64,000 nucleotides of DNA from positions 12,823-76,822 of the forward strand of contig CANQEO010000001.1 in NCBI GenBank assembly GCA_947595215.1. Reading direction: 5' to 3'. A program made the translations under genes and the position numbers. Below are positions 24,659-50,799 of the stretch, one piece after another (the stretch's first letter is position 1; each line of letters begins with the position of its first letter). Below the pieces are notes generated by a model that was given only the letters and a program-made list of their open reading frames with translations, made no database searches and was not told the origin of the DNA. The DNA comes from an uncultured Bacilli bacterium. Lineage in GTDB: Bacteria; Bacillota_I; Bacilli_A; RFN20; CAG-449.

Positions 24659-24689
24659 AAATCTTTCCTTCCTTTCAAAGTTATTTAAA

Positions 24690-24718: not shown

Positions 24719-24821
24719 CATTTTTATTAAAAAATGAAAATAGCTGTGTAAAATTATCAGCTTTTTTGTAAATTAATTTCAAAATCTTTGCTAAATTCTT
24801 TTAAACATTATTTAAACTGCT

Positions 24822-24851: not shown

Positions 24852-24873
24852 TTAACTAAAGGAGATGGAAGTT

Positions 24874-32691: not shown

Positions 32692-32719
32692 AGTTTTCCT
32701 CCCTGGTTAACATGCACGA

Positions 32720-33118: not shown

Positions 33119-33137
33119 ATACTATTTACCTCACTTT

Positions 33138-33515: not shown

Positions 33516-33533
33516 TTTTCTTTTCCTCCTAAA

Positions 33534-33647
33534 TTAGCCTTGTCTTTGCTTATGTTTGGGGTTTTGGCAGATGACCATGACGCGGCCTTTTCTGCGGATT
33601 ACCTTGCACTTGTCGCAAATCGGTTTTACTGAGGGTCTCACTTTCAT
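33534..33647 (-). CDS. rpmJ: 50S ribosomal protein L36 (bL36), zinc-binding type
   Basis: Too short for the ORF track. The reverse translation is [37 protein letters not shown] (37 aa). It lies between infA and rpsM. Confidence 0.95.
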
Positions 33648-33682
33648 AAAATTTCCTCCTCGTTTTGTTTCTTTTCGATCAC

Positions 33683-33901
33683 TTATTTATATCTAAATGT
33701 GATCCTTCCACGTGTTAAATCATATGGCGATATTTCTACAGTAACTCTATCACCTGGTAAAATGCGGATGTAATTCATACGGATTTTACCAGAAACGTGG
33801 GCGAGAATTACTACACCGTTTTCTAATCTCACATTAAACATCGCATTAGGTAAGGTTTCAACGACTACCGCTTCTACTTCAATGACATCTTCCTTTGCCA
33901 T
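33683..33901 (-). CDS. infA: translation initiation factor IF-1
   Basis: 72 aa. [29 protein letters not shown]...[14 protein letters not shown]. Confidence 0.98.
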
Positions 33902-34663: not shown

Positions 34664-35317
34664 TTACTTTGCTACCTCAGATATAATCTTTTGAATGTCA
34701 GAGAAGACATCACTTATGTCTTTCAAACCATCTACTTCTTTAAGAAGTCCTTTTTTCGCGTAAAAATCGATTAAAGGTTTAGTTTGATTTTCATAAGCAT
34801 CGAGTCTCACTGCTAGCGATTCTACAGTATCATCTTTACGTTGAATGAGTTCGTTTCCACAACTATCGCAAACTCCTTCTTTCATCGGTTTTTTAAATTC
34901 GACGTGATAGGAATTACCACAGTTTTTACAAACTCTACGTCCAGAGATTCTCTTGATTAAAGCATCTTTATCACAAGTGATATTGATAACTAATTGAATC
35001 GGGCGTGAGATCTCTTTAGTCAAAGTCTCTAAGGCTTCCGCTTGTGCGATGGTACGCGGAAAGCCATCGAGAAGATAACCACTTTCACAATCTGGTTTTG
35101 CTAATCTTTCTTTAACTAAACCGATTGTAACTTCATCAGGAACTAAAAGTCCTTGATTGATATAAGAACTGGCGAGTACACCTAATTTAGTACCTTCTTT
35201 AATGGCCTCACGGAACATATCCCCAGTGGAGATATGTGGGATGTCACAATAAGCCAGAATCTTTTCAGATTGTGTTCCTTTGCCAGCTCCAGGCGGGCCC
35301 ATAATGATGATATTCAT
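34664..35317 (-). CDS. adk: adenylate kinase (four-Cys zinc lid)
   Basis: Has GPPGAGKGTQ and the lid CKNCGNSYH...CDSCGNEL. Confidence 0.97.
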   Translation of the reverse strand: MNIIIMGPPGAGKGTQSEKILAYCDIPHISTGDMFREAIKEGTKLGVLASSYINQGLLVPDEVTIGLVKERLAKPDCESGYLLDGFPRTIAQAEALETLTKEISRPIQLVINITCDKDALIKRISGRRVCKNCGNSYHVEFKKPMKEGVCDSCGNELIQRKDDTVESLAVRLDAYENQTKPLIDFYAKKGLLKEVDGLKDISDVFSDIQKIISEVAK

Positions 35318-35328
35318 TTTGTATCCTC

Positions 35329-36672
35329 CTAATTAACTGACGCATGGGATGAAGCCGCTGCAAGTAAACCATTAATTTGATTCATAGTTTCAAGCGCCAC
35401 ACCGACGACGATGATCATACCAGTTCCACCTAACGCGAGTGATTGAGGAACCACTTTTAATAAAGTAAGTACTACTGGTAAAGCGGCGATTAAAGTTAAG
35501 GCTGTCGCACCGATGAAGGTAACTCTATTAAGTACTTTCTTTACATAACGATGCGTTTCATTGCCTGGTCTTACACCTGGGATGTAAGTACCATTCTTTT
35601 TAAAGTCTTCTGCTAAACGCTCAGGATTGATTGTTAAATTTGAATAGAAGAAACTGAATGCAAAAGTCAAGATAATATAAATTATAAGACCCCAAGGCAT
35701 ATACCAAACACTTCCGTTAATACCAGGCATTTCCACTAACGCTGACGAGACGAAAATATTTAAGATATTTTGTAGTGTCGCATCAGTTGAGCTAGTTGCG
35801 AAACTCACAATGACGGCTGGAGCCATCATAATCGAGCTAGCGAAGATAACCGGAATAACACCGGCTGAGTTAATTTTAATCGGTAAGAATGAGGTGTTAT
35901 TGATCTTTTGATTTAAAGCACCACCTGTTCCTGAGTGTTGGACTGGGATTTTTCTTATCGATAATTCGACGAAGACCACGAAGACGATAACAAGAATATA
36001 AGTCAAGATATAGACACCTAATGATAAGGCACCACGAATGATGTATTCTGAATCTCCAGTGATCAATTGTTGTCCGAAGAAATAGACGAATGCATTATAT
36101 ATCTGCGTCGGTAATGATGAAACAATACCGGCGAAGATAATCATTGAAATACCATTTCCGATACCTTTGGTAGTAATTTGGTCTGCCATCCACATCACTA
36201 GCATCGAACCGGCGATTAAGAAGATGACAATTTTCATATAACCAAAGAAGGAACCATCAAGAACTTCCAGTCCGGAAGTGTTCTGCATGGTAACTGTAAT
36301 GCCATACGCTTGAACAGATCCGAGTAATAAAGTTAGATAACGAGTTGCCATTTCGATTTTCTTTCTTCCGCTTTGACCTTGCCTTGAAAGTTCAGTTAAG
36401 GCTGGAAGAACATCCATCGATAGCAACTGAATGATAATCGATGAAGTGATGTACGGCGATACACCTAGCGCAAACACAGAGAAACTTTGTAATGCCCCAC
36501 CACCTAATAAATTCATTAAGCTAAGAACATCGCTATCACCCATGCTTTGATTGACCTTGACGCCTGGCACCGTAATCGCGGAGCCGATTCTAAAGATTAA
36601 GAAAATTCCTAAGGTAAATAGGATTCTTCCTCTAATATCTTTGTTCTTAAAGATGGCTGCGAGTTTCTTCAT
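35329..36672 (-). CDS. secY: preprotein translocase subunit SecY
   Basis: 447 aa, 10-TM profile. The position between rplO and adk is conserved. Confidence 0.97.
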   Translation of the reverse strand: MKKLAAIFKNKDIRGRILFTLGIFLIFRIGSAITVPGVKVNQSMGDSDVLSLMNLLGGGALQSFSVFALGVSPYITSSIIIQLLSMDVLPALTELSRQGQSGRKKIEMATRYLTLLLGSVQAYGITVTMQNTSGLEVLDGSFFGYMKIVIFLIAGSMLVMWMADQITTKGIGNGISMIIFAGIVSSLPTQIYNAFVYFFGQQLITGDSEYIIRGALSLGVYILTYILVIVFVVFVELSIRKIPVQHSGTGGALNQKINNTSFLPIKINSAGVIPVIFASSIMMAPAVIVSFATSSTDATLQNILNIFVSSALVEMPGINGSVWYMPWGLIIYIILTFAFSFFYSNLTINPERLAEDFKKNGTYIPGVRPGNETHRYVKKVLNRVTFIGATALTLIAALPVVLTLLKVVPQSLALGGTGMIIVVGVALETMNQINGLLAAASSHASVN

Positions 36673-36673
36673 C

Positions 36674-37114
36674 TTAGATCACCTCAATTTTTCCACCGGC
36701 ATCGACGATGGCCTTTTTGGCCGCTTTCGAGAACTTGTTAGCAGAAACATTAAGTTTCTTTTCCAAAGTTCCGTTGCCTAAGATTTTCACTCCTTCGTAT
36801 TCTTTGTTAACCAATCCGGCCTCTTTTAAAAGTGTCGGAGTGACATTAACACCATCATCAAATTTATTTAAGTCTTTGACATTAACGATCGCATAGCGAA
36901 CTTGAGTATAATTGGTAAATCCTCTTTTTGGTAATCTACGATAAATTGGGTTTTGACCACCTTCAAAGCCGAGACGAACTCCGCCACCACTTCTAGATTT
37001 TTGACCCTTGTTACCGGTACCACAGTTCTTGCCTTTGCCGCTTCCTAATCCGCGACCGACACGCATTTTCTTTTTACGAGCTCCAGCTTCATAATTTAAT
37101 TCATTAAGTTTCAT
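36674..37114 (-). CDS. rplO: 50S ribosomal protein L15 (uL15)
   Basis: [32 protein letters not shown] is the canonical uL15 sequence. Confidence 0.97.
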
Positions 37115-37125
37115 GTGCTGACCTC

Positions 37126-37704
37126 CTATTTGCGAAGCGCATTAATTTGCGCTGTGGTCTTGAGGTTACTCAAACCATCTACCGTCGCTCTAATGCAGTT
37201 GATGGCGGTTCTTGAGCCATATACTTTGGAGTAGATGTTTTTAACACCCGCTAATTCCAAAATAGCACGAACTGGTCCACCAGCGATAATTCCAGTACCT
37301 TCCGGTGCTGGTTTTAAGAAAACATTACAAGCGCCGAATTTACCGACGATCTCATGAGAGATGGTACCACCTTTTACGATGGTGATGTGCAACATATTTC
37401 TTTTAGCTGCCTCAAGCGCCTTTTTGATTGCATCTGGGACTTCGCCGGCCTTTCCGGTACCAAAACCATAATTGCCTTTTCCATCACCGACAACCACTAA
37501 TGCGGCAAAACGCATACGACGTCCACCTTTAACAGTCTTTGAGACTCTATTGATAGCGACGACACGTTCTTCATATTGTTTTTCAAAGCGATTTACGCCT
37601 GGTTTTCCGCCCATTTTACGACCCGGACGTTCGGAACGGTGAGCTCTTTCTTGTTTTGGAGCTGGTTTATTTTCGGTTTCAACAACCATATTTTCTTCTG
37701 CCAT
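37126..37704 (-). CDS. rpsE: 30S ribosomal protein S5 (uS5) with an extended basic N-terminus
   Basis: The core [22 protein letters not shown]... is canonical. About 44 residues precede it, compared with about 13 in my recollection of B. subtilis S5. Confidence 0.96.
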
Positions 37705-37715
37705 TTCCTTACCTC

Positions 37716-38072
37716 CTAGAATTCTAAGCCGTTAGCACGGGCTGCATCGGCTAAAGCCTTGATACGTCCATGATAAAGATATCCGGAACGATCGAAGACT
37801 ACTTTTTTGATTCCTTTAGCGACTGCTAGTTTAGCGATATCTTCACCAACTTTTTTCGCCGCTTCAATATTGGAACCATTTTCTAATTTCAACGATAATG
37901 AAGAACTAGAAACAAGTGTAACACCCTTCATATCGTCGATTAATTGTGCATGAATGTGCGCATTTGAACGATAGACACTCAAGCGTGGACATTCGTTGGT
38001 ACCGCTGATTTTGCGTCTTACACGAGCGTGACGTCTCATACGGCTGACATTTTTTGATTCTTTTGTAATCAT
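37716..38072 (-). CDS. rplR: 50S ribosomal protein L18 (uL18)
   Basis: [15 protein letters not shown]...[19 protein letters not shown]. Confidence 0.97.
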
Positions 38073-38092
38073 ACTTATCCCCTTTCTTGAGT

Positions 38093-38635
38093 CTATTTCT
38101 TACCGGCGCGTTTTCCTTCTTTACGGAGGATGTATTCGCCTTTGTATTTGATACCTTTGCCTTTATAAGGTTCCGGTTCTCTAACTGCTCTAATTAAAGC
38201 AGCGGTTTGACCAACAGCTTGCGCATCGTAACCTTCAACGGTAATATTGACGTTATCAGCAACGGATACTTTAACTCCTGGCTCTGGTTTTAACACTACT
38301 TCGTGGGAGTACCCCATGTTGAGAACGATGTTTTCTCCTCTCATCGCAGCACGGTAACCGATACCGACGATTTCAAGTTGCTTTTTAAAGCCTTCACTAA
38401 CTCCGACAACCATGTTATTTAAGTTTGCACGGGCAGTGCCGTGAAGTTCTTTCATTCTTATTGAATCATTTGGACGCGCAACCTTTAATTGATCTCCTTC
38501 TAATTCAATCTTTAATTCAACTGGGAATTCTCTTTTTAAAGTTCCTTTTGGTCCTTTGACTTCAACGACATTTCCGTCAATTGAAACATTAACACCTGTT
38601 GGAACGACAATCGGTTTTCTTCCTACTCTAGACAT
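38093..38635 (-). CDS. rplF: 50S ribosomal protein L6 (uL6)
   Basis: [31 protein letters not shown]. Confidence 0.97.
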
Positions 38636-38645
38636 ACATTACCTC

Positions 38646-39038
38646 CTACCACACATAGGCGATAACTTCGCCACCGACACCATTCTTACGGGCTTCTTTA
38701 TCAGTCATAACACCTTTTGAGGTAGAAATAACAGCGATACCTAAGCCATTTAAGACGCGTGGAAGTTTATCCGCCGGAACTGTAACGCGAAGACCTGGTT
38801 TTGAGATTTTCTTTAAACCAGAGATTGCTCTAGCTCCTTTATAACCATATTTAAGAGTGATGGTTAACACTTTTTTTACATCACCTTCGACTGCAAAGTC
38901 GACGATGAATCCTTCTTCTTTCAAAATTTCGGCAATGCGAACTTTCATGGTGGAAGAAGGCATTGAAACAGTTTCATCGTGATTTTGATTTGCATTACGG
39001 ATTCTTGTAAGCATATCCGCGATTGGATCTATCATCAT
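38646..39038 (-). CDS. rpsH: 30S ribosomal protein S8 (uS8)
   Basis: [15 protein letters not shown] is the canonical uS8 N-terminus. Confidence 0.97.
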
Positions 39039-39056
39039 ACTTATCTTCCTCCTATT

Positions 39057-39242
39057 CTACCAACTGGATTTTTTCATACCCGGAATTTCGCCTTTATAAG
39101 CGAGTTCTCTAAGGCAGATACGGCATAAACCGAATTTTTTAATAACTGAGTGTGGACGTCCACAGCGTTCGCAACGAGTATATTCTCTCACTTTAAACTT
39201 TTGAGGACGATTGCAGCGAACAACGATTGATTTCTTTGCCAT
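39057..39242 (-). CDS. rpsZ: 30S ribosomal protein S14 type Z (zinc-binding, 61 aa)
   Basis: [20 protein letters not shown] carries the CxxC...CxxC motif. The short form is typical of spc operons. Confidence 0.96.
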
Positions 39243-39254
39243 TTTTCTATCCTC

Positions 39255-39929
39255 CTATTTGTGGAACGGCATTCCTAACATTTCAAGAAGTGTGTAAGCT
39301 TCTTCGTCAGTGTTAGCGGTTGTGACAATAACAACGTCCATGCCTCTAGTCTTTGAAACTTTATCAAAATCGATCTCTGGGAAGATCAATTGTTCTTTAA
39401 CACCTAAGGTGTAGTTTCCTCTTCCGTCAAATGCATTTTTACTGACACCACGGAAATCTCTAACGCGTGGAAGTGAAATGGTGACTAACTTGTCGAGGAA
39501 TTCATACATTCTCGCGCCTCTTAATGTTACTTTACATCCGATTGGCATACCTTCTCTTAATTTAAAGGAAGCGACGGATTTCTTAGCTTTGGTAACCACT
39601 GGTTTTTGACCGGTAATTTCAGCTAATTCACGAACTGAGTCGTCGAGTAATTTTGAATTTGAAGTCGCATCTCCAACACCGACATTTAAGACGATCTTTT
39701 CGAGATGTGGAACTTGCATGATTGATTTGTAATTGTACTTGCTCATTAAGGCTGGTACGATTTCATCATCATATTTTTTCTTTAAGCGAGCGACATATTT
39801 GTTTTCGTCGACTACTTTCTTGGCTTTTGGAGCCGCTTTTGGTTCGGCCTTAGCCTTAGGAGTCGCTTTCTTGGCTGCTGGTTTTTTGACTTCTTCAGCT
39901 GCTGCTGTGGTTTTCTTTGCTGTTGCCAT
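39255..39929 (-). CDS. rplE: 50S ribosomal protein L5 (uL5) with a 45-aa Lys/Ala/Pro-rich N-terminal extension
   Basis: The core starts at [21 protein letters not shown]. It is preceded by [47 protein letters not shown] strong RBS (GGAGG + 9 nt) serves the upstream ATG, and there is no Met at the canonical start. Confidence 0.95.
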
Positions 39930-39943
39930 TACTCACTACCTCC

Positions 39944-40252
39944 TTAATCTAACTTAGTGCCACTCTTTTTGGTGACACGAACTTTTTTACCATCGATGAT
40001 TTGATAAGACACTCTAGTAGCTTTCTTAGCTTTAGCGTCATAGATAGCGACGTTAGAAGCATCGATTGGTGCATACATTTCAACGATAGAGCCTTCAGCG
40101 TTATTTTGTCTTGGTTTTTGATGTTTTTTGACTAAGTTAACACCATCAACTACAACTCTATTTAATTTTGGAAATGCCTTTTGGACAACTCCAACTTTAC
40201 CCTTATCAGCGCCTGCGATAACGATAACTTTATCACCTTTTTTTACTCTCAT
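39944..40252 (-). CDS. rplX: 50S ribosomal protein L24 (uL24)
   Basis: [21 protein letters not shown] contains a KOW motif. Confidence 0.97.
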
Positions 40253-40263
40253 GATGAACCTCC

Positions 40264-40638
40264 TTATAAAACCTCAGGAGCCAAGGAGACAATTTTCATG
40301 AATCCTTCACCCTTGTCACGAAGTTCGCGGGCAATTGGTCCGAAAACTCTGGTTCCGCGAGGAGATCCGTCTTCGTTAATTAAAACGATGGCATTATCAT
40401 CAAAGCGGACATAAGAACCATCTGGTCTATTAATTCCTTTTTTGGTTCTGACGATGACGCCTTTAACGACATCACCTTTCTTGATTTTACCATTTGGAAT
40501 CGCCGCTTTGACCGCACATAAGACAATATCTCCGATCGAAGCGGATTTACGGTGACTTCCGCCATATAAACGGAAGATACGAACCGATTTGGCACCGGAA
40601 TTATCGGCTACCACTAAATTTGTTTCAGTTTGAACCAT
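40264..40638 (-). CDS. rplN: 50S ribosomal protein L14 (uL14)
   Basis: [19 protein letters not shown]... is the canonical uL14 sequence. Confidence 0.97.
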
Positions 40639-40655
40639 ATTCGTTTGTCCTCCCT

Positions 40656-40922
40656 TTATTTGACGTCTTCAGCCTTCATAACGACATTTAAGAGACGGAA
40701 GTGCTTGGTCGCTGATAATGGACGAGTTTCCATAATCGCGACGACATCACCCATCTTAGCTTCGTTGTTTTCGTCATGAGCTTTATACTTTTTGGAATAT
40801 TTAACGCGTTTTCCATATTTTGGATGGCGTTTGTGTGTTTCGATTAAAACCGTGATGGTTTTATCCATTTTGTCGGAGACAACTACACCTTGTAGGACTC
40901 TTCTTGTTTTTCTTTCTTCCAT
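40656..40922 (-). CDS. rpsQ: 30S ribosomal protein S17 (uS17)
   Basis: [34 protein letters not shown]. Confidence 0.97.
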
Positions 40923-40936
40923 GATTTAGTTCCTCC

Positions 40937-41137
40937 TTAGTTAAGTCCGATCTCGCGTTCTTTTAAAACTGTATAGATGCGAGCGATGGTCTTACGAATT
41001 TCGGTTAATTTTTTACCATTTTCGAGTTGGCCAGTTGCATGTTGGAAACGAAGGGACATTAACTCTTGTTTCAATTCATATGCCTTCTCGTTGAGTTCTT
41101 CATTTGAAAGTTCTCTGATTTCATTTAATTTCATCAT
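40937..41137 (-). CDS. rpmC: 50S ribosomal protein L29 (uL29)
   Basis: [29 protein letters not shown]. Confidence 0.96.
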
Positions 41138-41139
41138 GA

Positions 41140-41556
41140 TTACTCACCTTTTCCTTTCGCAACGATGCGTGTTTTGAGTGGGAGTTTGTAGCTTGCTAAG
41201 CGTAAAGCTTCGCGAGCGACTTCTTCAGGAACTCCAGCGATTTCAAACATCACGCGGCCTGTTTTTACAATGGCAACCCATGAATCTGGGCTACCTTTAC
41301 CAGATCCCATACGAACTTCCGCTGGTTTCTTAGTTTTTGCTAAGTGTGGGAAGATTCTAATCCAGATCTGACCAGTTCTTTTTGTGTAACGAGCGAGGAC
41401 GATACGAGCGGCCTCGATTTGACGCGAATTAATCTCATTACCCGAGATAGCTTGGAGACCAAATTCACCAAATGATACTTCGTTACCAGCTTTTGATAAG
41501 CCTTCGTATTTGATTCCATGAGGTCTTCTGTATTTAACTCTCTTTGGTTGTAACAT
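41140..41556 (-). CDS. rplP: 50S ribosomal protein L16 (uL16)
   Basis: [19 protein letters not shown] is the canonical sequence. Confidence 0.98.
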
Positions 41557-41562
41557 CGTGAA

Positions 41563-42240
41563 CTACTCTCCTTTCTTTTGTTCGGGTTTCGCATTTAAAT
41601 TGACGACACCACGGGAGATCCAAACTTTAACGCCTAATCTACCATAGGTGGTGTGTGCTTCTGCTAAAGCATAATCGACATCTTGACGAAGTGTATGAAG
41701 AGAAACAACACCTTCTTTATAACCTTCGCTACGAGCGATATCAGCACCGGCTAAACGACCAGAAACCATTGTTTTGCAACCGACCGCACCGGCTTTTAGA
41801 ACTCTTTGAATCGCTTTCTTTTGAACGTTTCTAAATGAAGCACGATCTTCAAGTTGCTTAGCGATATCTTGAGCGATGATGTTAGCATCGAGTGAAGGAT
41901 TCTTCACTTCGACGACGACAAGTTTAACTTCTTTCTTAGCTTTGGCGCCTTTGTTAACTAGCTTAGTTATCAATTTATTGAGTTCTTTAATGCGAGCACC
42001 ATCTTGTCCGAGGACCATACCCGGACGAGCGGTGAAAATCATAACATTGATAACTTCTTTGATTCTCTCAATCTCAATGTGTGAGAGTAAAGAGTCTTTT
42101 AATTCTTTAGTGAGATATTTTCTGATTTCAATATCTTCTTTCAAGAAGGTAGCATAGTCTTTCTTGCTAGCATACCATCTAGAATTCCAGTCACGGCTGA
42201 CACCGATTCTCATTCCTACCGGATTAACTTTTTGACCCAT
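41563..42240 (-). CDS. rpsC: 30S ribosomal protein S3 (uS3)
   Basis: MGQKVNPVGMRIGVSRDWNSRWYA. Confidence 0.98.
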   Translation of the reverse strand: MGQKVNPVGMRIGVSRDWNSRWYASKKDYATFLKEDIEIRKYLTKELKDSLLSHIEIERIKEVINVMIFTARPGMVLGQDGARIKELNKLITKLVNKGAKAKKEVKLVVVEVKNPSLDANIIAQDIAKQLEDRASFRNVQKKAIQRVLKAGAVGCKTMVSGRLAGADIARSEGYKEGVVSLHTLRQDVDYALAEAHTTYGRLGVKVWISRGVVNLNAKPEQKKGE

Positions 42241-42249
42241 ATGCCCCTC

Positions 42250-42582
42250 CTATCTTTCTTTTACCACACATGTGATGTGGCAGGTTCTTTTAACGAGTGA
42301 CGAAGCGGAACCTTTCGCTCTCGGGAGATATCTCTTAAGACGTGGACCATCACCAGCATAAATTTCGGCGATGTATAATTTTGATTCGTCCATCTTATTG
42401 TTATTAACTGCATTTGCAGCAGCACTCTTAATCAATTTGACTACTGGAGCAGTAGCGGATTTGTTAACGTTAGCAAGAATTCCTAACGCTTCAGCGACAT
42501 CCTTACCTCTTACTAAGTCGATTACTAAGCGTGCTTTTCTTGGAGTGACGCGCACTCCGGTTGCTTTTGCCATTGCTTGCAT
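42250..42582 (-). CDS. rplV: 50S ribosomal protein L22 (uL22)
   Basis: AKATGVRVTPRKARLVIDLVRGK. GGAGG lies 8 nt upstream of the ATG at 42582. Confidence 0.96.
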   Translation of the reverse strand: MQAMAKATGVRVTPRKARLVIDLVRGKDVAEALGILANVNKSATAPVVKLIKSAAANAVNNNKMDESKLYIAEIYAGDGPRLKRYLPRAKGSASSLVKRTCHITCVVKER

Positions 42583-42587
42583 CTTAA

Positions 42588-42884
42588 TTACCTCCGAGCG
42601 GCCGCAGCAGCTTTATCTTCTGCTGTGTGACCGGTATGTCCTTTATAGGTACGGGTAGGAGCAAATTCTCCTAACTTATGTCCGACCATATCTTCCGTGA
42701 CGTAAACGGTGATAAATTCATGACCGTTATAAACAGCGAAAGAGTGTTCAATGAATTGTGGAAAAATTGTCGATCTACGTGACCAAGTTTTAATTAACTC
42801 TTTTTTTCCAGAGGCATTTAATGCTTCGACTTTTTTCATTAAATGATCATCGACGAAAGCGCCTTTTTTCAAACTACGAGCCAT
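42588..42884 (-). CDS. rpsS: 30S ribosomal protein S19 (uS19)
   Basis: [20 protein letters not shown]...[24 protein letters not shown]. Confidence 0.98.
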
Positions 42885-42903
42885 ATTTCCTTACCTCTCT
42901 TTC

Positions 42904-43737
42904 CTATTTACCATTACGTCTTCTGACGATTAATTTATTGCTAGCTTTCTTAGTGTCACGTGTCTTAACACCGAGAGCTTTCTTACCCCATGGGGTACGC
43001 GGAGCGCTACGGCCAACCGGTGATTTACCTTCACCACCACCATGTGGGTGGTCATTAGGATTCATGACAGAACCACGAACAGTTGGGCGAACGCCTAACC
43101 ATCTTGTTTTACCTGCTTTACCGAGATTAATTAAGTTATAGTCTTCATTACCGACAACACCGATAGTGGCACGGCATTTTGCTAAAACTTTTCTAACTTC
43201 TCCAGAAGCGAGACGAACAAGAACATATTTGCCTTCTTTACCAAGGACTTGTGCGGAAGTACCGGCAGCGCGGCAAAGTTGTCCACCCTTACCCGGATTT
43301 AATTCCACATTGTGAACCATGGTACCTTCAGGAATGTTTCCTAATTCCATCGCATTACCGACTTTGATATCAGCTGCGACACCTGAGATGACGATATCGC
43401 CAACTTCAATGCCTTTTGGAGCGATGATGTATCTCTTTTCACCATCAACATAAGCAACTAAGCAAATGTTGGCATTTCTGTTTGGATCGTATTCAATTGT
43501 TTTGATTTTTCCGGGAATCTCATCCTTATTTCTCTTGAAATCGATGATTCTATATTTTCTTTTGTGACCACCGCCGATGTGGCGTGTCGTAATCATACCG
43601 GTGTTGTTACGACCTCCAGTTTTTGAAAGTGAAACTAATAAGCTTTTTTCAGGAGTACTAGTAGTGATTTCGCTAAACGTAGAGTTGGTCATATGGCGAC
43701 GAGACGGAGTCGTCGGCTTATAACTTCTAATTGGCAT
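42904..43737 (-). CDS. rplB: 50S ribosomal protein L2 (uL2)
   Basis: 277 aa. [26 protein letters not shown]...[12 protein letters not shown]. Confidence 0.98.
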
Positions 43738-43777
43738 TTTTTCTTTCTCCTATATTTAATTAATAGCCTTTAATGGC

Positions 43778-44125
43778 TTATTCACTGACAACGTTGAGGT
43801 TTTCAGATGGATCAAGAGTGACTATAGCTTTCTTGTATCCGCTGATTGAACCTTCATAACGTCCCATTCTCTTGGCTCTTGGGCCAACATTCATGACCTT
43901 GACATCAATAACTTTGACATTGAAGATCGCTTCAAACGCGAGTTTAATTTGAACTTTGTTCGCGTCTTTTTTAACGACTACGGTTATTTTGTTTTGTTCT
44001 TTTTGAAGATTCATCGTTTTTTCGGTAACGATTGGTTTTACGATGACATCGAAGTCTCCTGTTTGTGGAGCCGCATATTTTCTTTCTTCGACGACTTCTT
44101 CAACAGCTTTCTTTGCTTTAGCCAT
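43778..44125 (-). CDS. rplW: 50S ribosomal protein L23 (uL23) with about 22 aa of charged N-terminal extension
   Basis: The core is DVIVKPIVTEKTMNL..., preceded by MAKAKKAVEEVVEERKYAAPQT. The ATG overlaps the rplD stop (TAATG), with GGAGG 10 nt upstream. Confidence 0.95.
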   Translation of the reverse strand: MAKAKKAVEEVVEERKYAAPQTGDFDVIVKPIVTEKTMNLQKEQNKITVVVKKDANKVQIKLAFEAIFNVKVIDVKVMNVGPRAKRMGRYEGSISGYKKAIVTLDPSENLNVVSE

Positions 44126-44769
44126 TATTTAAGTTCCTCCTCAACTGCTTTGATTGCATCGAGAGTCATCACTACACTATCAGCATTTAAGATGTCATAG
44201 ACACATAAATTGTTGAAGCCTGTGATTATTACACCCGGGATATTACGGGCAGAAGCAACGAAGTTATCGTTATCTTCAGCGATGACAAACAAAGTCTTTT
44301 CTTTTGCATTGATGTTTTTCATAACTTTGACCATCTCCTTAGTTTTTGGAGCGTCGAAGTTGAATGCATCGACAACAATCATATCTTTATCGTTAACCTT
44401 GAGGGTTAAAGCAGATCTAACTGCGAGATTGTGTGACTTTTTGTTCATTTCTAATTTGAAGTTTTGGTTGCCTTTTGGACCAAAGACGATACCACCATGT
44501 CTCCATAAAGGCGAACGAGTGGAACCAGCTCTAGCACGTCCGGTACCTTTTTGACGGAATGGTTTTTTACCGCCGCCTGAAACTTCAGCTCTAGTCTTGG
44601 TCTTAGCTGTCGCTTGTCTCATATTCGCTTGATAAACCTGAACGGCATCGAACATGACTTGGTTGTTAACTTCACAAGCGAAGACATCACTACTTAAGCT
44701 AACTTTGCTAACTTCTTCACCAGCTTGATTGACGACTGGCAAAGTTACTGTATTTGCTTTTTTTGCCAT
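44125..44769 (-). CDS. rplD: 50S ribosomal protein L4 (uL4)
   Basis: KTRAEVSGGGKKPFRQKGTGRARAGSTRSPLWRHGG. Confidence 0.98.
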   Translation of the reverse strand: MAKKANTVTLPVVNQAGEEVSKVSLSSDVFACEVNNQVMFDAVQVYQANMRQATAKTKTRAEVSGGGKKPFRQKGTGRARAGSTRSPLWRHGGIVFGPKGNQNFKLEMNKKSHNLAVRSALTLKVNDKDMIVVDAFNFDAPKTKEMVKVMKNINAKEKTLFVIAEDNDNFVASARNIPGVIITGFNNLCVYDILNADSVVMTLDAIKAVEEELK

Positions 44770-44794
44770 TTCTAATTCTCCTTTCCGTTACAGG

Positions 44795-45481
44795 TTATTC
44801 ATTACCTTGAGAAGCGGAATAGTTGACTAAGTCTTTAACTTTTTCAACGTTCTTTTGAGCCTTGACGGCTGTTCTCAAAGTGACAATTGATTTTTTAGGT
44901 CCTGGAACCGCACCTTTAACTAAGATGGCATTCTTTTCGGCATCGACTGCGACAACGAGAAGATTTAAGATTGTAGCGCTATTTCCACCAGCGTGACCAG
45001 CCATTTTCTTACCTGGGTGGACACGGTTATTGCATCTACCATTAGTAGCGAATGATCCTGGACCTCTATGGTAACCAGATCCGTGACCTTTTGGACCAAT
45101 GGTGTAGTGCCAACGTTTAATAGCACCTGTAAAACCTTTTCCTTTACTAGTTCCGATAACATCGATTACATCACCGGCTTTAAAGATATCTGCTTTAACT
45201 TCTTGACCGACTTCGTATTTCATCTCGTCTCCAGTTAACTCTTTGAGTTCATATTTTGGAGAGACGCCAGCTTTCTTAAAGATACCTAATTCTGCTTTGT
45301 TGCAACGATTTTCTTTCTTTTCTTCATAACCGACTTGAATCGCATCATATCCATCTTTTTCTTTTGTTTTTACTTGAGTGACGACATTTGGTAAAACTTC
45401 AATGACGGTGACAGGATACATTTTTCCGTCCGTACTGAATACTTGGGTCATCCCCATTTTACGTCCTACGATTGATTTCAT
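44795..45481 (-). CDS. rplC: 50S ribosomal protein L3 (uL3)
   Basis: MKSIVGRKMGMTQVF...GKGFTGAIKRWHY. Confidence 0.98.
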   Translation of the reverse strand: MKSIVGRKMGMTQVFSTDGKMYPVTVIEVLPNVVTQVKTKEKDGYDAIQVGYEEKKENRCNKAELGIFKKAGVSPKYELKELTGDEMKYEVGQEVKADIFKAGDVIDVIGTSKGKGFTGAIKRWHYTIGPKGHGSGYHRGPGSFATNGRCNNRVHPGKKMAGHAGGNSATILNLLVVAVDAEKNAILVKGAVPGPKKSIVTLRTAVKAQKNVEKVKDLVNYSASQGNE

Positions 45482-45495
45482 CGTTTCCTGCCTCC

Positions 45496-45804
45496 TTATA
45501 ATTTAATTTCGATATCAACACCACTTGGCAAATCCAAACGAGTTAAAGTATCGATGGTTTGCTTATTTGGATTGATGATATCGATCAATCTCTTGTGAGT
45601 TCTGATTTCGAACTGTTCTCTTGCGTCCTTATATTTGTGGACCGCTCTTAAAATTGTATAGACTTGTTTCTCCGTTGGGAGTGGGATTGGACCAACTACT
45701 GTGGCTCCCGTGTTTTTGGCCGCTTGAACGATCTTTTCGACTGATAAATCCAAGATTTTGTGATCATATGCCTTTAAGCGGACTCTAATCTTTTTATTTG
45801 CCAT
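45496..45804 (-). CDS. rpsJ: 30S ribosomal protein S10 (uS10)
   Basis: [22 protein letters not shown]...[14 protein letters not shown]-type sequence. It is the first gene of the cluster. Confidence 0.98.
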
Positions 45805-45922
45805 AAATTTCCTCCTTGTCTAAATCTGGCTAGACATTACGCTCCATGGAAGTTCCCCTATGACAACTGATGTCGGTGTTCAGCAATCTTCCACTTCATA
45901 GCGCACGTTAAAAAGCGTCGAC
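45805..45922 (-). promoter_or_regulatory. structured 5' leader of the S10 operon (possible r-protein autoregulatory leader)
   Basis: A locally GC-richer 5' UTR of about 115 nt. On the minus strand CGCU-[AUGAA]-GUGGAAG pairs with CUUCCAU-[GG]-AGCG (plus-strand coordinates 45840-45903). A second small hairpin, GUCUA-GCCAGAUU-UAGAC, lies immediately before the AAGGAGG RBS. Confidence 0.4.
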
Positions 45923-45928
45923 TTCAAC

Positions 45929-45958
45929 ATTCTACCTAATGTCATATGCATAAGTCAA
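45929..45958 (-). promoter_or_regulatory. sigma-A-type promoter of the S10 operon
   Basis: On the minus strand: TTGACT (45958-45953), an 18-nt spacer, then TAGAAT (45934-45929). Confidence 0.6.
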
Positions 45959-46280
45959 CAAATTTTAAATAAATTTTAATATATGTTCAAAATCTATTTT
46001 TTAGACGATTTTACTATATCCTTAATTTAATATATAAGAATTACAAAACCACTCTATTAACAAAATTTTTCAATTGATTTATATATATTCATGGAAACTT
46101 TAATATCTAATTTGTCAGAACACTTAACATAAATTAAACATTCTAATTGATTTATGGAAAGACTTTCTTATTATAAATTTCTAATATATACAAACAAAAA
46201 ATTCCATAAGTATTATAAAGTTGCTATATTTAGTTCTATAGTTATATAGAATATTTTTATTAATTTACAACTATAAGATT

Positions 46281-46350: not shown

Positions 46351-48054
46351 TTACCAGTCCTCATTGAATTTTGTTCTATATGACATTAGTTTAGAAATAT
46401 CATAATCGTATTTTGAGTCGTATGGATTAATCTTAGATTGATATTCAAATACATCATCTTTTTCGTAATTAGAAAACTCTTCACAACGATAAAACCTTTG
46501 TAATTTGCTTTTTAAAACATAGGGACAATTAGCTTCAGTAATAATGCATTCCCCTTCTTTTAAATATGCTAAATCGCTTTTGGGTATGAGCGGAATAGTT
46601 TCTATGCTGATATCAGTCAATTTTTCTCCTTGACCTTTTAAAGCACATATCGGAGATATGCGTGTATATTCGCCACATTCTCTTTTAAACGCTTCCAATG
46701 TTTCTGGATTATTACTACCTAAGAAAATATGAATATTAAGATTATCTCTAATAATAGTGGCTACATTTTTGCCATAAACATTATCTAATTGAGCATAAGA
46801 TTGAATTATCAAAATAAAGAAAATATTTCTTCCTCGACATGCTGATATCGTAGTGTCCAGATCAATTATAGGTGGAAAATTGCCAAATTCATCAAGAATA
46901 AAATAAAATGGTTTATCTAATTTTCCGGTTTTCAATCTACTTACATTTTCAATTAAAAAATTATATGCACTTTGAACAAAAAGACTAATCATTTGATAAT
47001 GTGTTTTAATCTCATCATGATAATCAATAAAGATAGCAACTTTATCTTCTAAAAGAACATTTAAATCGAATGAATTACAACTAGTGATAGTTTGAATCGT
47101 ACTATTCTTCATGACCGCTAACTTTGATTGGAAGGTAGTCATATAACTAGATCGAGTTCTTTCCGCACAATCAAAAGGTCCCCTTGAAAATAAATACGCT
47201 TTTGAATTGTGCGGTCTTCTAGAGAAGTATCCCCTATCGAAGTTTAATGGATTTTCATTCGAACCCATACCATCAAAACTAGCAAGAATCTTAAAAATTG
47301 TGCTGAACGAGAAAGTATCTTCAGTAATCCTCTCAAAAGAACTCTCATCAAGTTTTGAATCTTCAAGCATTGCCCATAAGAAAGATTTTAAGATATCTCT
47401 GGCACCCAAATCCCAAACCATATCATGCTTATCATCAATTGTGATAAGCATATTAGCCATGTGATCAATTTTATTACCAACCTCAGAAAGCATTAATTTT
47501 TTTTCAAATTGCGCATTTTTTTCTGCTTCTTTCAAAGTATCGTAAATCTTATCTTGAAAGCGATACTTGATACGTTGATTAATAGTTACTCTTTCAATTT
47601 CCTTAGTAACATCAAAAGCACGTTGATATTCTCGGTATATCGGAGTTAACGGATTCCAATATTCGCTGTGACGATGATCTCTAAAATTTAATAGATAAAC
47701 TTTATACCCTTCTTTACGCAGTTTTTTTGCAGTAATCCGATAGTTTTCTCCTTTAGGATCCGAAATAACCATGCTCTTTTTTATCGCTTGACTTGCAAAC
47801 GATAAAATGGTTGGAATGACATACGATGTGGTCTTTCCTAATCCAGTTGCCGAAATTACCGCAACATGGCAATCATTTTTTGAATATTTTTGCATAAGTT
47901 CTCCATTAATGGAAAAACTCGCTTTCAATACACCATTCATTTTGCATTTAGGAAGATCTTTAAAAGAGACTAACTCGTCTCTATCGAGTTCATTATATGA
48001 AACGAGTTTTTGATTTTCATGCCCTTTTATTAATTCACTGATTTCCTTATACAT
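46351..48054 (-). CDS. VirD4/TraG-like type IV coupling protein-family ATPase, soluble (no N-terminal TM segment), 567 aa
   Basis: Walker A context NDCHVAVISATGLGKTTSYVIPTIL; Walker B FYFILDEFGNFPPI; then IFFILIIQSYAQLDNVYGKNVATIIRDNLNIHIFLGSNNPETLEAFKRECG. These are the hallmark T4CP blocks. The start is set at the ATG at 48054 (GGAGG + 8 nt). It overlaps the upstream stop by 8 nt (ATGTATAA). There is no hydrophobic N-terminus. Confidence 0.8.
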   Translation of the reverse strand: MYKEISELIKGHENQKLVSYNELDRDELVSFKDLPKCKMNGVLKASFSINGELMQKYSKNDCHVAVISATGLGKTTSYVIPTILSFASQAIKKSMVISDPKGENYRITAKKLRKEGYKVYLLNFRDHRHSEYWNPLTPIYREYQRAFDVTKEIERVTINQRIKYRFQDKIYDTLKEAEKNAQFEKKLMLSEVGNKIDHMANMLITIDDKHDMVWDLGARDILKSFLWAMLEDSKLDESSFERITEDTFSFSTIFKILASFDGMGSNENPLNFDRGYFSRRPHNSKAYLFSRGPFDCAERTRSSYMTTFQSKLAVMKNSTIQTITSCNSFDLNVLLEDKVAIFIDYHDEIKTHYQMISLFVQSAYNFLIENVSRLKTGKLDKPFYFILDEFGNFPPIIDLDTTISACRGRNIFFILIIQSYAQLDNVYGKNVATIIRDNLNIHIFLGSNNPETLEAFKRECGEYTRISPICALKGQGEKLTDISIETIPLIPKSDLAYLKEGECIITEANCPYVLKSKLQRFYRCEEFSNYEKDDVFEYQSKINPYDSKYDYDISKLMSYRTKFNEDW

Positions 48055-49618
48055 TTTTGTAACCTCCAAATCCATAAATTGTATGATCCTCACGATATTG
48101 AGTTAACTCGCTAATCGTTATCACTTTATTACAATCAACTGAAGATAAAAGCGATGTTAATGTTTCAGAAGCATCTTTCAATGACAAAGCATAAAGATGC
48201 TCTAACGAATTTTTGTCAAATTCAACTTCAACGCCAAACTCTTCAGTTTTTGTTTTGATTAATTTCGATAATAAAATTTCCTTTTCGACATTTTCGATGT
48301 TTTTTAAGAAAATTGTTTGTAGTATTTTTAAGTGCTTAGCATTTTTGCTATCACACAAGAAGATAGGATAAACAGAACTTAAATCGATAGAGATTCCTAA
48401 TCCACTTAAAAAGAACGCTTTTCTTTCTTCGTTGTTAGCAAAACTTTTTATTGCATTGAGATAATTAGAGTTAACATCTCCATGAACAATAAAAACGTAA
48501 ATATTCGCTTTATCTTCCTCGCAACTACGAACAAGGATATTATGGCGACTTGATTCTAGATCGAACGGCTTCAATTGTGATACATCAATTTTTACAATAT
48601 TAGCATCTTTAAATCGCAAAGAAATATGATTATAATAGTCTTCTAACAAGAAAGCATCTTCATTAATAAGGCACAAAGCGTTATAGCAATTATTGTTAAA
48701 TTGCTTAGCAATTTTATTTATAATCTTATCTTGTTCATCCTTGCGCGATACCATCGATTGCCCTTGATAAACCAAAAGTTTAACTTTGTTTTTCATTAGG
48801 CATAATGGTAAGTCATTTGCAGCATCTAATACATCCTGATTTCCAAATACAATTTTGCGTTTATCCTTTTCATTGATTAATGTAGACATTAAAATACGTG
48901 CATATTTAGGTACATAAACATTAGGATTAAGTTGTTCGGATCCTATAAGTTTTTGCAATAAATATGTATTTTCGTGAAACTTGATATTTATGCCTCGATA
49001 AAAAGAATTTGCTCTTTCAAAAATATAATAGGTAGGTAAATTATTAAGAAGTGTATAAAGATGACTCAAATACTCATCGCGACTTTTTTTATTAAAGTAA
49101 AGACACATCAAAATGCTATCAACATCATTCCAATTAGCCGCTTTTTCTAGCGTTTTAAGCGATTTATCTTCATAAGTTTCAATAATCTTTAATGCTTGAA
49201 TTAATCCAAAAAGCCTTAATGAAATAATTTTATTTTTATAGGAACTTGAAACTAAAAAGTTAATCGCTTCAGATTGACTCGGTTTCAAGTTGACATTATA
49301 GCCTTCTTTGATTAATAATTTCATCGCTTGACCTTTAATTTTAATGATTTCTTCTTGTTTAGAATCAAAAGTATATTGACTACCATTAAGGTAAAATACT
49401 TCTTTAATTCTTTGATGGCGATCATAATCAATTTCAGTGGCGATATTATTAACCGCTTCAGACTTAACGATATCGTATAATTCGTCGCAAGTTTCATTTG
49501 ATAACATATACACATTCGCAAGTTCATTAAAGAGCGTTTTATTATTTTTTCCAGTCAAACACTCTACTTGGAAATAGCATCTGAGAAAATTTTCTTCCAA
49601 CATATTTAATAAATTCAT
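48047..49618 (-). CDS. 523-aa protein: unknown helical N-terminal half plus a degenerate Hsp100/Clp D2-like AAA+ module
   Basis: Start at the ATG at 49618 (GAGAGG RBS, 7 nt after the ClpP stop). The C-terminal half aligns by eye to Clp/Hsp100 D2. IVFGNQDVLDAAND resembles VIGQDEAI. LLVYQGQSMVSRKDE sits where GPTGVGKTE would be. NIYVFIVHGDVNSNYLNAIKSF sits where [23 protein letters not shown] would be. PIFLCDSKN sits at sensor-1 (IIMTSN). EEFGVEVEFDKNSLEHLYALS resembles the D2-small lid. It ends in TIYGFGGYKNV. Confidence 0.45.
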   Translation of the reverse strand: MNLLNMLEENFLRCYFQVECLTGKNNKTLFNELANVYMLSNETCDELYDIVKSEAVNNIATEIDYDRHQRIKEVFYLNGSQYTFDSKQEEIIKIKGQAMKLLIKEGYNVNLKPSQSEAINFLVSSSYKNKIISLRLFGLIQALKIIETYEDKSLKTLEKAANWNDVDSILMCLYFNKKSRDEYLSHLYTLLNNLPTYYIFERANSFYRGINIKFHENTYLLQKLIGSEQLNPNVYVPKYARILMSTLINEKDKRKIVFGNQDVLDAANDLPLCLMKNKVKLLVYQGQSMVSRKDEQDKIINKIAKQFNNNCYNALCLINEDAFLLEDYYNHISLRFKDANIVKIDVSQLKPFDLESSRHNILVRSCEEDKANIYVFIVHGDVNSNYLNAIKSFANNEERKAFFLSGLGISIDLSSVYPIFLCDSKNAKHLKILQTIFLKNIENVEKEILLSKLIKTKTEEFGVEVEFDKNSLEHLYALSLKDASETLTSLLSSVDCNKVITISELTQYREDHTIYGFGGYKNV

Positions 49619-49625: not shown

Positions 49626-50201
49626 TTACCTCTCTTTATCTTGTTTTTTAGATGGTATAACCATGTCAATGAGACCATATTGCAAAGCGGTATCAGCATC
49701 CATAATATTGTCTCTATCGGTATCACGTTGAATTGTTTCAATTGATTTACCAGTGTTTTGAGCCATTATTTGATTGAGCTTGTTTTTAATTTTTTGAATG
49801 TGCTCAGCGGCAATCATAATATCTGAAGCTTGACCACTCACACCACCTAAAGGTTGATGGATAAGAATCTCACAATTTTGAGTTGCTTTTCTCATTCCTT
49901 TAGTTCCCGAACAAAGTAAAAAAGCTGCCATTGAGGCTACCATTCCGATTCCAACAGTTGCAATCTTGGCTTGGATGAAATTCATGGTATCATAGATTGC
50001 TAATCCTTCATTGACACTGCCACCTGGACTATTGATTTGAATTGTAATGATTCTTTCATCCAGTGGCGCATTCTCAGTTTTAAATTTATTATCAAGATAG
50101 AGCAACTGACTGATAACTCTATATGATGTATCAACATCGATTGGTCCAAAAAGATTTATCGTGTTGTGATATAGTGAATAATTCATTGAGAACTCTTTCA
50201 T
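49626..50201 (-). CDS. ClpP-family serine protease paralog (191 aa, shortened N-terminus)
   Basis: INSPGGSVNEGLAIYDTMNFI; GMVASMAAFLL (catalytic Ser); ILIHQPLGG (His); RDTDRDNIMDADTALQYGLID (Asp). It is close to canonical ClpP over the core. It starts at MKEFSMNYSLYHNTINLFG, so the axial N-terminal loop region is missing. Strong RBS (AAAGGAGG + 6 nt). Confidence 0.88.
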   Translation of the reverse strand: MKEFSMNYSLYHNTINLFGPIDVDTSYRVISQLLYLDNKFKTENAPLDERIITIQINSPGGSVNEGLAIYDTMNFIQAKIATVGIGMVASMAAFLLCSGTKGMRKATQNCEILIHQPLGGVSGQASDIMIAAEHIQKIKNKLNQIMAQNTGKSIETIQRDTDRDNIMDADTALQYGLIDMVIPSKKQDKER

Positions 50202-50511: not shown

Positions 50512-50799
50512 TTATATTTCTAGCAGATGCTCTCTTGGTGCTCCAAAGTAACCAACTATCAGTGCATTTTCATTTATACATTGGAGATGATAGGAAGTTC
50601 CCACAACAACCTTACTAGCGCTATTATCGCATTCATCCAGAGATAGTAATTGATCTTTTCCTACATCGATAGATGAAGTGCTTACTCCTAGGCAATTATT
50701 AACTATTATTTGATTATTATTTTTAGAGCATGCTAAACCATTGTTCATGTGAACAAAAATATTAACAGTTTTAACGTTAGTCATAGTTAATGTTTTCAT
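50512..50799 (-). CDS. hypothetical 95-aa protein (four Cys, no recognisable family)
   Basis: Strong RBS (AAGGAG + 6 nt + ATG) and a good promoter about 100 nt upstream. No signal peptide, TM segment or HTH was recognised. Confidence 0.5.
   Translation of the reverse strand: MKTLTMTNVKTVNIFVHMNNGLACSKNNNQIIVNNCLGVSTSSIDVGKDQLLSLDECDNSASKVVVGTSYHLQCINENALIVGYFGAPREHLLEI

Follow-up and report, generated by a model that had tools for sequence, protein, structure and literature searches.

A LonA-like pseudo-AAA+ protein with a candidate ClpP-docking tail, encoded between a ClpP paralog and a soluble VirD4-like ATPase in gut Firmicutes

In a stretch of 64,000 nucleotides from an uncultured Bacilli bacterium (assembly GCA_947595215.1, contig CANQEO010000001.1, forward-strand positions 12,823 to 76,822; this whole stretch is called the window here, and position 1 is its first letter), three genes follow each other on the minus strand. 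They encode a ClpP paralog (49626-50201), an uncharacterised protein of 523 residues (48047-49618), which we call the middle protein, and a soluble ATPase of 567 residues of the VirD4/TraG coupling-protein type (46351-48054). The middle open reading frame (ORF) has its ATG at 49618 and its TAA at 48047-48049, begins with MNLLNMLEENF and finishes with HTIYGFGGYKNV, and the same 523-residue product was obtained by independent gene callers on two public assemblies of identical sequence. Its start codon lies 7 nt past the stop of the clpP-like gene, and a Shine-Dalgarno-like site, GAGAGG (49629-49634, minus strand), is found within the last clpP codons, 10 nt before that ATG. At the other end, the start of the VirD4-like gene overlaps the middle gene by 8 nt, and codons G518-G519 of the middle gene, GGAGGT (48062-48067, minus strand), double as the Shine-Dalgarno sequence of the VirD4-like gene, with a 7-nt spacer to the ATG at 48054. 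The order ClpP paralog, middle protein, VirD4-like ATPase is a translationally coupled operon. A first-pass annotation, made from the letters alone, had already drawn the 523-residue ORF with these limits and this ending and had placed it directly after the clpP-like gene, as is borne out by the sequence and the gene calls.

The middle protein on its own gave nothing meaningful when compared with Pfam, NCBIfam, PADLOC, PHROGs and PDB sequences, and a word-indexed homolog search returned the query itself as the sole entry, with the single sequence as well as with a four-member alignment. However, homologs of the VirD4-like protein (more than 650, at 50-56% identity) adjoin unannotated genes for proteins of 530-541 residues that are about 30% identical to the middle protein. 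An exhaustive HMMER search collected 249 family representatives after clustering at 50%, of which 213 matched with E up to 1e-10 and nearly all measure 525-545 residues. An alignment of 138 members forms the basis of the AlphaFold2 (AF2) model and of the conservation counts given below. A tblastn search with the middle protein found no match in phage and plasmid collections. Judged by these sequence comparisons, the middle protein is a member of a real but unannotated family, and a full-text literature search found no description of a cassette that joins ClpP, a middle protein and a VirD4-like ATPase.

The AF2 model of the middle protein is of high confidence (predicted local distance difference test, pLDDT, 94.5; predicted template modelling score, pTM, 0.89), and it divides the protein into a Sel1-like helical N-terminal domain, a LonA-like pseudo-AAA+ module and a tail that carries a hydrophobic-G-F motif. 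The N-terminal domain (residues 1-290; 48749-49618, minus strand), to which the first-pass annotation could give no identity, consists of helices only according to DSSP, and R70, K95, W163, K253 and P271 are invariant or nearly so in the family. It includes a probable region of Sel1-type, TPR-like repeats (residues ~106-190; 49049-49303, minus strand), which was recognised by the family profile in a search of PDB sequences, where profile positions 113-183 match Sel1-repeat proteins with E 6.8e-11; the window protein alone has no Pfam Sel1 match, and its repeat copy is degenerate. Sel1-like repeats are a typical protein-binding surface.

Over residues 293-510 of the model, the order of strands and helices is that of an AAA+ large subdomain followed by its lid. 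The large alpha/beta subdomain, with degenerate sites, spans residues 291-440 (48299-48748, minus strand), as delimited by the strand order of the model, Foldseek and column composition. The small or lid subdomain spans residues 441-510 (48089-48298, minus strand), with helices at 443-461, 469-477, 480-493 and 502-509, the first of which opens with a Lon-like E445-K446. Foldseek matched the model to many AAA+ structures with probability 1.00. Against the PDB, the top 43 matches are all LonA (best 6u5z_A, E 7e-8, probability 1.0) and are followed by sigma-54 activators; against a viral structure library, Lon fills six of the first seven ranks, and Clp-type ATPases do not come up before E ~1e-4. 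The family profile agrees with this ranking, as it matched about 24 distinct Lon sequences among PDB sequences (profile positions 387-519, E 4e-5 to 3e-4) and no Clp ATPase. In addition, the sensor-1 strand, DLSxVLPICFCDxxN, resembles the Lon form, DLSKVLFICTAN, and the E-K with which the lid begins is Lon-like as well.

That the C-terminal half is an AAA+ module had been recognised in the first-pass annotation, which read it, however, as a degenerate Hsp100/Clp D2 module (AAA_2 plus ClpB_D2-small) descended from ClpA, ClpB or ClpC. There are reasons why such a reading could arise: Lon and the Hsp100 proteins belong to the same AAA+ clade (HCLR), and the blocks that had been assigned to Walker B, sensor-1 and the lid lie on the right structural elements. 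The viral Clp-type matches mentioned above also speak for it. But Pfam gives neither AAA_2 nor ClpB_D2-small in the middle protein at E up to 1, LonA outranks Clp in both Foldseek libraries, the profile search of the PDB returns about 24 Lon sequences and no Clp ATPase, and Lon-specific features are present, namely a DLSxVLFIC-type sensor-1 strand with E-K after it. We therefore regard an Hsp100/Clp D2 origin as very improbable. On account of the profile matches and the Foldseek ranks, LonA is the nearest relative of the module as far as profile and model can tell. Pfam finds no Lon_C and no LON_substr_bdg either, and the protein ends 13 residues past the lid. Thus, the profile and structure searches for which the annotation had called did yield an AAA+ relationship, with LonA in the place of Hsp100, and neither a lack of such a relationship nor a loss of the YGF tail among homologs, the two outcomes that it had named as contrary to its proposal, was observed.

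The ATP site of this module is lost throughout the family. In the place of the P-loop, strand beta-1 (A313-L-C-L-I; 315-318 in the model) is followed by just N319-E320-D321 before the next helix begins, and the family consensus at this place, Y-R-P-L-C-x-x-S-D-S-x-Y, contains no G-K-[ST] and does not fit the Walker A pattern GxxxxGK[ST]. The Walker B strand (372-378, NIYVFIV) runs into H-G-D and departs from hhhhDE; the family reads hhhh[RK]G[ED] here, with G380 conserved at 84%. The sensor-1 strand lies at 416-422 (PIFLCD..N). No aromatic residue occurs at the place of pore-loop 1, where the consensus is D-x-E-P-T-x-N-N, and no conserved arginine at the place of the Lon finger, both places being set by a sequence register with Lon, in which the finger motif is LLDRME, and not by superposition. 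By alignment and model, the whole family is devoid of Walker A, Walker B, an aromatic residue in the pore loop and the arginine finger, and a protein that has lost its nucleotide-binding, hydrolysis and pore-loop residues cannot be a motor. The first-pass annotation had called the protein a pseudo-ATPase with replaced nucleotide-binding residues, and this view extends to the whole family at the level of sequence and model. Its register was right for the Walker B strand, sensor-1 and the lid and about 30 residues too early for Walker A: the block LLVYQGQSMVSRKDE that it placed there falls mostly in an unstructured linker, with the last residues of the block inside helix 293-307, and its "RIDMSEY" block is in the model really the Walker A strand plus helix.

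The module is followed by a flexible C-terminal tail (residues 511-523; 48050-48088, minus strand), for which pLDDT falls to 54 and 44 in the last two blocks compared with more than 90 elsewhere. Within it, Y515-G516-F517 (48068-48076, minus strand) is a candidate ClpP-docking tripeptide and the best-conserved element of the family: x-G-[FY] occurs within the last 30 residues in all 138 aligned members, with G516 conserved at 100%, F517 at 98%, G518 at 88% and G519 at 80%. The residue before G-F is Y in 50, F in 45, L in 14 and I in 14 members, and hence one of these four in 123 of 138. The conservation of the two glycines after it is confounded, because their GGA GGT codons are the Shine-Dalgarno sequence of the VirD4-like gene. 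The codon of G518 is GGA in 54 and GGG in 7 loci and never GGT or GGC, and in most loci 13 nt separate this glycine codon from the downstream start. Such a dual coding of GGAGG(T) in Gly-Gly codons, at a near-fixed offset across about 70 loci, inflates the apparent conservation of the motif.

The tripeptide itself is a different matter. The codon of G516 is GGA in 32, GGT in 23, GGC in 21 and GGG in 5 loci, the phenylalanine codon is TTC in 39 and TTT in 35, and the codons of the preceding residue also vary synonymously. In three loci (L003, L007 and L010), the protein ends L-G-F-stop although the next gene does not start until 195-249 nt away. The synonymous variation and the retention of the motif without an overlapping ribosome-binding site argue that hydrophobic-G-F is selected at the protein level, and the idea that the whole YGFGG is an artefact of the ribosome-binding site was rejected, as it applies to the GG alone. 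The tail had been singled out before as a YGFGG motif; the hydrophobic-G-F part of this proposal stands, whereas the five-residue reading does not.

ClpX, ClpA and ClpC dock in the hydrophobic H sites of ClpP by loops with such tripeptides (PMC9035409). The docking loop of E. coli ClpX reads GIGFGA. The sequence of the middle-protein tail, its predicted flexibility and its linkage to clpP fit a candidate ClpP-docking element.

The ClpP paralog of the operon (191 residues; PF00574, E 3.5e-61) retains the catalytic triad, S90/H115/D164, as do all 49 of the 49 ClpPs found in such cassettes. Its identity to Firmicute ClpPs in the PDB is about 55%, and it reaches 193 bits against TIGR00493, the NCBIfam model for clpP, which is below the cut-off of 308.6. 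Since the PDB alignments start about 15 residues later, the N-terminal axial gating segment is missing. A phage prohead protease was considered and rejected, as the score to cellular ClpP is far higher and there is no phage context. The docking pocket is re-lined: the window ClpP reads IITIQINSPGG where the housekeeping form reads IYLYINSPGG, so that T53 and Q55 replace pocket tyrosines. Among the 49 system ClpPs, the equivalent of S. aureus Y63 is Gln in 48, that of E. coli Y60 is Thr, Ile or Val and never Tyr, that of E. coli L114 is Thr in 48, and that of L48 is Gln in 41. The pocket was also compared with that of E. coli and B. subtilis ClpP, and the main differences show up in the PDB alignments as well. 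In S. aureus ClpP, Y63 is a residue of the H site, and its replacement by alanine (Y63A) leaves the protease active and constitutively open (PMC9035409). A ClpP without a gate and with a re-lined pocket would suit a dedicated partner, but a pocket that has fallen out of use is an equally good reading.

How firmly the three genes belong together was seen in a pattern scan with the VirD4-like alignment over one genome per species, which gave 119 hits, of which 80 loci were kept and 77 are distinct. All scanned loci come from animal-gut metagenome-assembled genomes labelled as Clostridia, Christensenellales, Anaeroplasma(taceae), Erysipelotrichales, "Mollicutes" or Ca. Coproplasma, and several of these genomes carry two cassettes. 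In 74 of the 77 loci, the middle gene immediately precedes the VirD4-like gene; in two of the exceptions (L016 and L075) the upstream sequence is too short, and one (L038) is genuinely without a middle gene over 7 kb upstream. A ClpP gene comes right before the middle gene in 49 loci, and the VirD4-like gene is thus the most constant partner of the middle protein. Across these 49 loci, any two middle proteins share on average 33.5% identity, two ATPases 57% and two ClpPs 67%, and the pairwise distances of the three proteins are correlated (Spearman 0.45-0.67), which indicates that they were inherited together and that the middle protein evolves fastest.

The tail varies with the presence of ClpP. 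In ClpP-linked loci, the residue before G-F is Y in 39, F in 7 and G in 3, whereas in ClpP-less loci it is L in 10, I in 7, F in 4, N in 2, Y in 1 and C in 1 (Fisher p = 1.2e-10 for residue class against ClpP presence, uncorrected for phylogeny). In a crude neighbour-joining tree from which the tail was left out, there are about 11 changes in ClpP linkage and about 9 in the aromatic or aliphatic class, and the two co-occur in at least six clades. Aromatic tails would go with the dedicated ClpP, and aliphatic tails, which have the canonical form, may use a ClpP encoded elsewhere.

This pattern bears on the possibility that the tail has nothing to do with ClpP, being conserved by the ribosome-binding site and translational coupling or by binding to the VirD4-like protein, and that the middle protein is an accessory or receptor subunit of the ATPase with clpP as an optional neighbour. 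It is true that GGAGG stands at a fixed 13 nt from the downstream start, that the VirD4-like gene is the constant partner with one third of the loci lacking ClpP, and that the hydrophobic residues of the ClpP pocket are partly lost. Against this, the codons of G, F and the preceding residue vary synonymously and L-G-F-stop is kept with a distant downstream start. Moreover, the residue class before G-F tracks ClpP presence, a pattern that neither a ribosome-binding role nor VirD4 binding predicts. We think that a tail unrelated to ClpP is quite improbable.

The third protein of the operon is recognised well by existing families (PF02534, E 3.6e-49; PF12696, E 6e-24; PF10412). Both of its Walker motifs, A (GLGKT) and B (ILDEF), are intact, and G73/K74/T75 and D388/E389 are invariant or nearly so in its family. 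Foldseek matched its AF2 model (pLDDT 88) best to Cag-beta (E 9e-19) and TrwB, and then to HerA, including HerA from defence complexes. Known coupling proteins are membrane-anchored, whereas the hydropathy of this one reaches a maximum of only 1.18 over 19 residues, without any hydrophobic segment that could serve as an anchor. In a search with PADLOC 2.0, it has a weak match to mad8 (E 9e-14), and neither the middle protein nor ClpP is matched. Its C-terminus (46351-46365, minus strand) is acidic and aromatic, NEDW, and aromatic plus acidic residues are found among the last five residues of 62 of 83 distinct VirD4-like proteins (FDF, YDF, WDF, DDLF), often preceded by a basic stretch; as a speculation, this tail could be a second docking peptide.

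A coupling protein invites the view that the cassette is the decayed remnant of a conjugative element, a coupling protein with accessory genes and without a function of its own, and indeed the plasmid proteins closest to the ATPase, at 25-31% identity, are coupling proteins of the CD1115 family from conjugative plasmids. Yet no type IV secretion system (T4SS) or relaxase family recurs beside the cassette in the 80 loci, the ATPase has no membrane anchor, the plasmid and phage collections yielded no match to the middle protein, and in 119 species-level genomes the ORFs have stayed intact and diverge together. A decayed remnant is scarcely credible in view of these observations, and an assignment of the cassette to a conjugative element was rejected on the same grounds of secretion genes and anchor.

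Built on the observed fold, motif loss, tail conservation, synteny and covariation of tail and ClpP, the overall explanation that we favour, with a probability of roughly 0.55, is that the middle protein is a ClpP-tethering pseudo-ATPase adaptor in a conserved three-gene module. The protein would descend from a LonA-type AAA+ module that gained the Sel1-like helical N-terminal domain and the flexible C-terminal tail. The tail would insert into the hydrophobic docking pockets on the ClpP ring, in the manner of the [ILV]-G-[FL] loops of ClpX, ClpA and ClpC, and the body of the protein would link ClpP to a hexamer of the VirD4-like ATPase. The latter, as the sole component with an intact ATP site, would supply both recognition and energy. 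Docking of the tail on ClpP is the part of this proposal that we consider probable; the assembly of all three proteins into a complex, a protease regulated by the VirD4-like ATPase, is put forward more tentatively, at a little less than even odds.

Several observations weigh against this explanation. Whereas ClpX, ClpA and ClpC carry the tripeptide in a loop of the large subdomain, the middle protein has it in a C-terminal tail, a departure from the canonical position that the first-pass annotation had rightly pointed out, and the GG part of the apparent motif is explained by the ribosome-binding site. Several hydrophobic pocket residues are lost in the dedicated ClpP, so that the pocket is altered or lost. 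In 25 loci with enough upstream sequence, no ClpP is encoded within 7 kb, and in L038 the VirD4-like gene stands alone. The covariation statistic takes no account of phylogeny, and the pattern has exceptions (L020, L054, L061/62, L082/84).

An alternative arrangement would have the tail touch ClpP without any bridging ring. The middle protein would then be an activator that opens the gate in the way of acyldepsipeptides or IGF peptides, or an inhibitor that blocks the pocket, and the VirD4-like ATPase would be a separate component, for example a controlling DNA sensor. This proposal draws on the same evidence from tail and ClpP as the tethering adaptor, and ligands of the H site alone are able to open ClpP (PMC9035409). 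The dedicated ClpP is, in addition, already without gating loops. But the AAA+ body and lid are conserved over their full length, beyond what a carrier of a tail needs, and the coupling to the VirD4-like gene is tighter than that to ClpP (74 versus 49 loci). We consider a mere activator or inhibitor unlikely.

A comparison with characterised systems helps to place the tethering adaptor. LonA (E. coli LonA, 6u5z, and human LONP1) is the best match in structure and profile and shares the alpha/beta plus lid architecture, the type of sensor-1 strand and the E-K that opens the lid; in both proteins, an element that contacts the protease, a proposed one in the case of the middle protein, comes directly after the lid. 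However, the middle protein lacks the Walker motifs, arginine finger and pore-loop aromatic of LonA as well as the fused S16 Ser-Lys protease domain, and its N-terminal domain carries probable Sel1-like repeats and has no Pfam LON_substr_bdg match. With the loops of ClpX, ClpA and ClpC it has in common the tripeptide chemistry on a flexible segment encoded beside clpP, and its I/L-G-F variants are identical to canonical motifs. It differs from them in that the motif is at the extreme C-terminus of an ATP-dead carrier, that Tyr or Phe comes first in ClpP-linked loci, and that the pocket of the cognate ClpP is remodelled. The middle protein accordingly resembles the Lon AAA+ module in its looks and a ClpP-docking partner in its proposed working, and it is a member of neither family. 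ClpP is not known to have a characterised partner other than active AAA+ unfoldases, which use an internal loop for docking.

Tails that enter pockets of a self-compartmentalised peptidase from an AAA+ ring and open its gate are known from the HbYX motifs of PAN, Rpt and Mpa and from the C-termini of HslU. They are similar to the docking proposed here, but peptidase family and motif differ, and the carriers are active ATPases. LonC of Meiothermus taiwanensis is an ATP-independent Lon-like protease with a degenerate AAA module that keeps its fused Lon protease domain. LonC and the middle protein both have Lon-derived AAA-like modules without Walker motifs, whereas proteolysis in the case of the middle protein is proposed to be outsourced to a separate ClpP. 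The VirD4-like protein shares with TrwB, VirD4 and Cag-beta the fold of type IV coupling proteins with its all-alpha domain and intact Walker motifs, and it differs from them by the missing membrane anchor and by the lack of T4SS and relaxase genes nearby. In defence systems, hexamers of the HerA type are known to scaffold effector enzymes, and HerA defence structures of the SIR2-HerA and DUF4297-HerA kind are among the Foldseek matches of the VirD4-like model. Its partners, however, are a pseudo-AAA+ protein and ClpP and not a nuclease or NADase.

Other genes recur around related loci. Directly upstream of the ClpP or middle gene, at least 21 loci encode a small DUF1292-like protein (~105-140 residues; PF06949, E 6e-6 to 1e-3), for example L004 (3481-3807), L037 (4424-4759) and L003 (3746-4168); it could be a fourth component, and the window has no such ORF. 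In 13 loci, an XRE-type helix-turn-helix protein of about 110 residues with a Cys-rich segment, a putative regulator, is encoded upstream of the cassette. A second putative regulator found upstream (170-290 residues) has the motif A-[LI]-x-I-G-L-R-L-N...E-T...L...A-G-Y and no Pfam match. Loci with putative regulators are L026 (3689-4045), L019 (4878-5216), L045 and L056, and L008, L009, L011, L030, L048, L052, L054 and L070. In L038, an ORF of 1280 residues (1538-5380) lies about 1.6 kb upstream of the VirD4-like gene (6998-8680) and seems by eye to join a TIR-like N-terminal part to a P-loop STAND NTPase, TPR-like repeats and a kinase-like C-terminal part, an architecture of the defence type. 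Unannotated proteins of 230-450 residues, with N-termini that look like winged helices, are encoded immediately downstream of the VirD4-like gene in about 16 loci; examples of downstream genes are found in L016 (2223-3578), L042 (8677-9378), L038 (8691-9611) and L043 (10877-12412). Further downstream, an FtsK-like ATPase is found in five loci and a calcineurin-like phosphoesterase in ten, and the window contains none of these downstream genes.

In the window itself, the cassette is flanked by a ribosomal operon and by lipoprotein genes, the S10 ribosomal-protein operon beginning about 550 nt downstream. The G+C content is about 40% in the ribosomal-protein block (32000-46000) compared with about 30% in the remaining window including the cassette, and an Rfam scan of the window gave no family at threshold. 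On the strand of clpP and about 310 nt upstream of it lies a 95-residue ORF (50512-50799, minus strand) that is perhaps no real gene; it gave no meaningful family match, a sub-threshold Pfam CRT-like hit (E 0.008) being the sole one, and it has no counterpart in related loci. Farther away, two lipoprotein-like genes of 472 residues (24865-26283 and 29846-31264, plus strand) are 100% identical. Their divergent neighbours (22790-24721 and 27756-29702, minus strand; 643 and 648 residues) are 53% identical overall with the first ~113 residues identical. This looks like a recent exact duplication of ~1.9 kb within an array of paralogous lipoprotein genes.

A role of the cassette in conflict with mobile elements or phages comes to mind because of its sporadic distribution, the multiple copies per genome, the frequent adjacent XRE-type regulators and the one locus beside a TIR-STAND gene. 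Two findings argue against a defence label, namely that PADLOC has no match for the middle protein or ClpP and that the middle protein is absent from phage and plasmid collections, and we regard the role as possible but doubtful. Taken to its full extent, the proposal would describe a new class of energy-dependent protease, in which a hexamer of the FtsK/HerA superfamily, and not an AAA+ unfoldase, selects substrates and feeds them into ClpP, and in which a nucleotide-dead, Lon-derived ring is a passive adaptor between six- and seven-fold symmetry that is held by its G-F tails. As coupling proteins recognise DNA-linked proteins such as relaxases, such a machine might be an anti-plasmid or anti-phage device that destroys incoming proteins, and the versions without a ClpP of their own would borrow the host ClpP by I/L-G-F. 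That all of this applies is rather unlikely in our estimation.

The three-gene arrangement suggests a protease with three parts that has not been described before. At its centre is a Lon-derived family that has lost its ATPase function, still bears a docking tripeptide at its C-terminus, travels with a gate-less ClpP with a re-lined pocket and has a conjugation-type ATPase of another fold as its constant companion. If the docking is true, ClpP would be recruitable by adaptors that are not motors, and a RecA-fold translocase might drive a Clp protease. The loci would then also constitute a natural experiment in the co-evolution of pocket and motif, with Y/F-G-F in the presence of the dedicated ClpP and I/L-G-F in its absence. 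For the family itself, the analysis provides a handle at the level of function on unannotated proteins of at least 119 gut Firmicute and Mollicute-like species.

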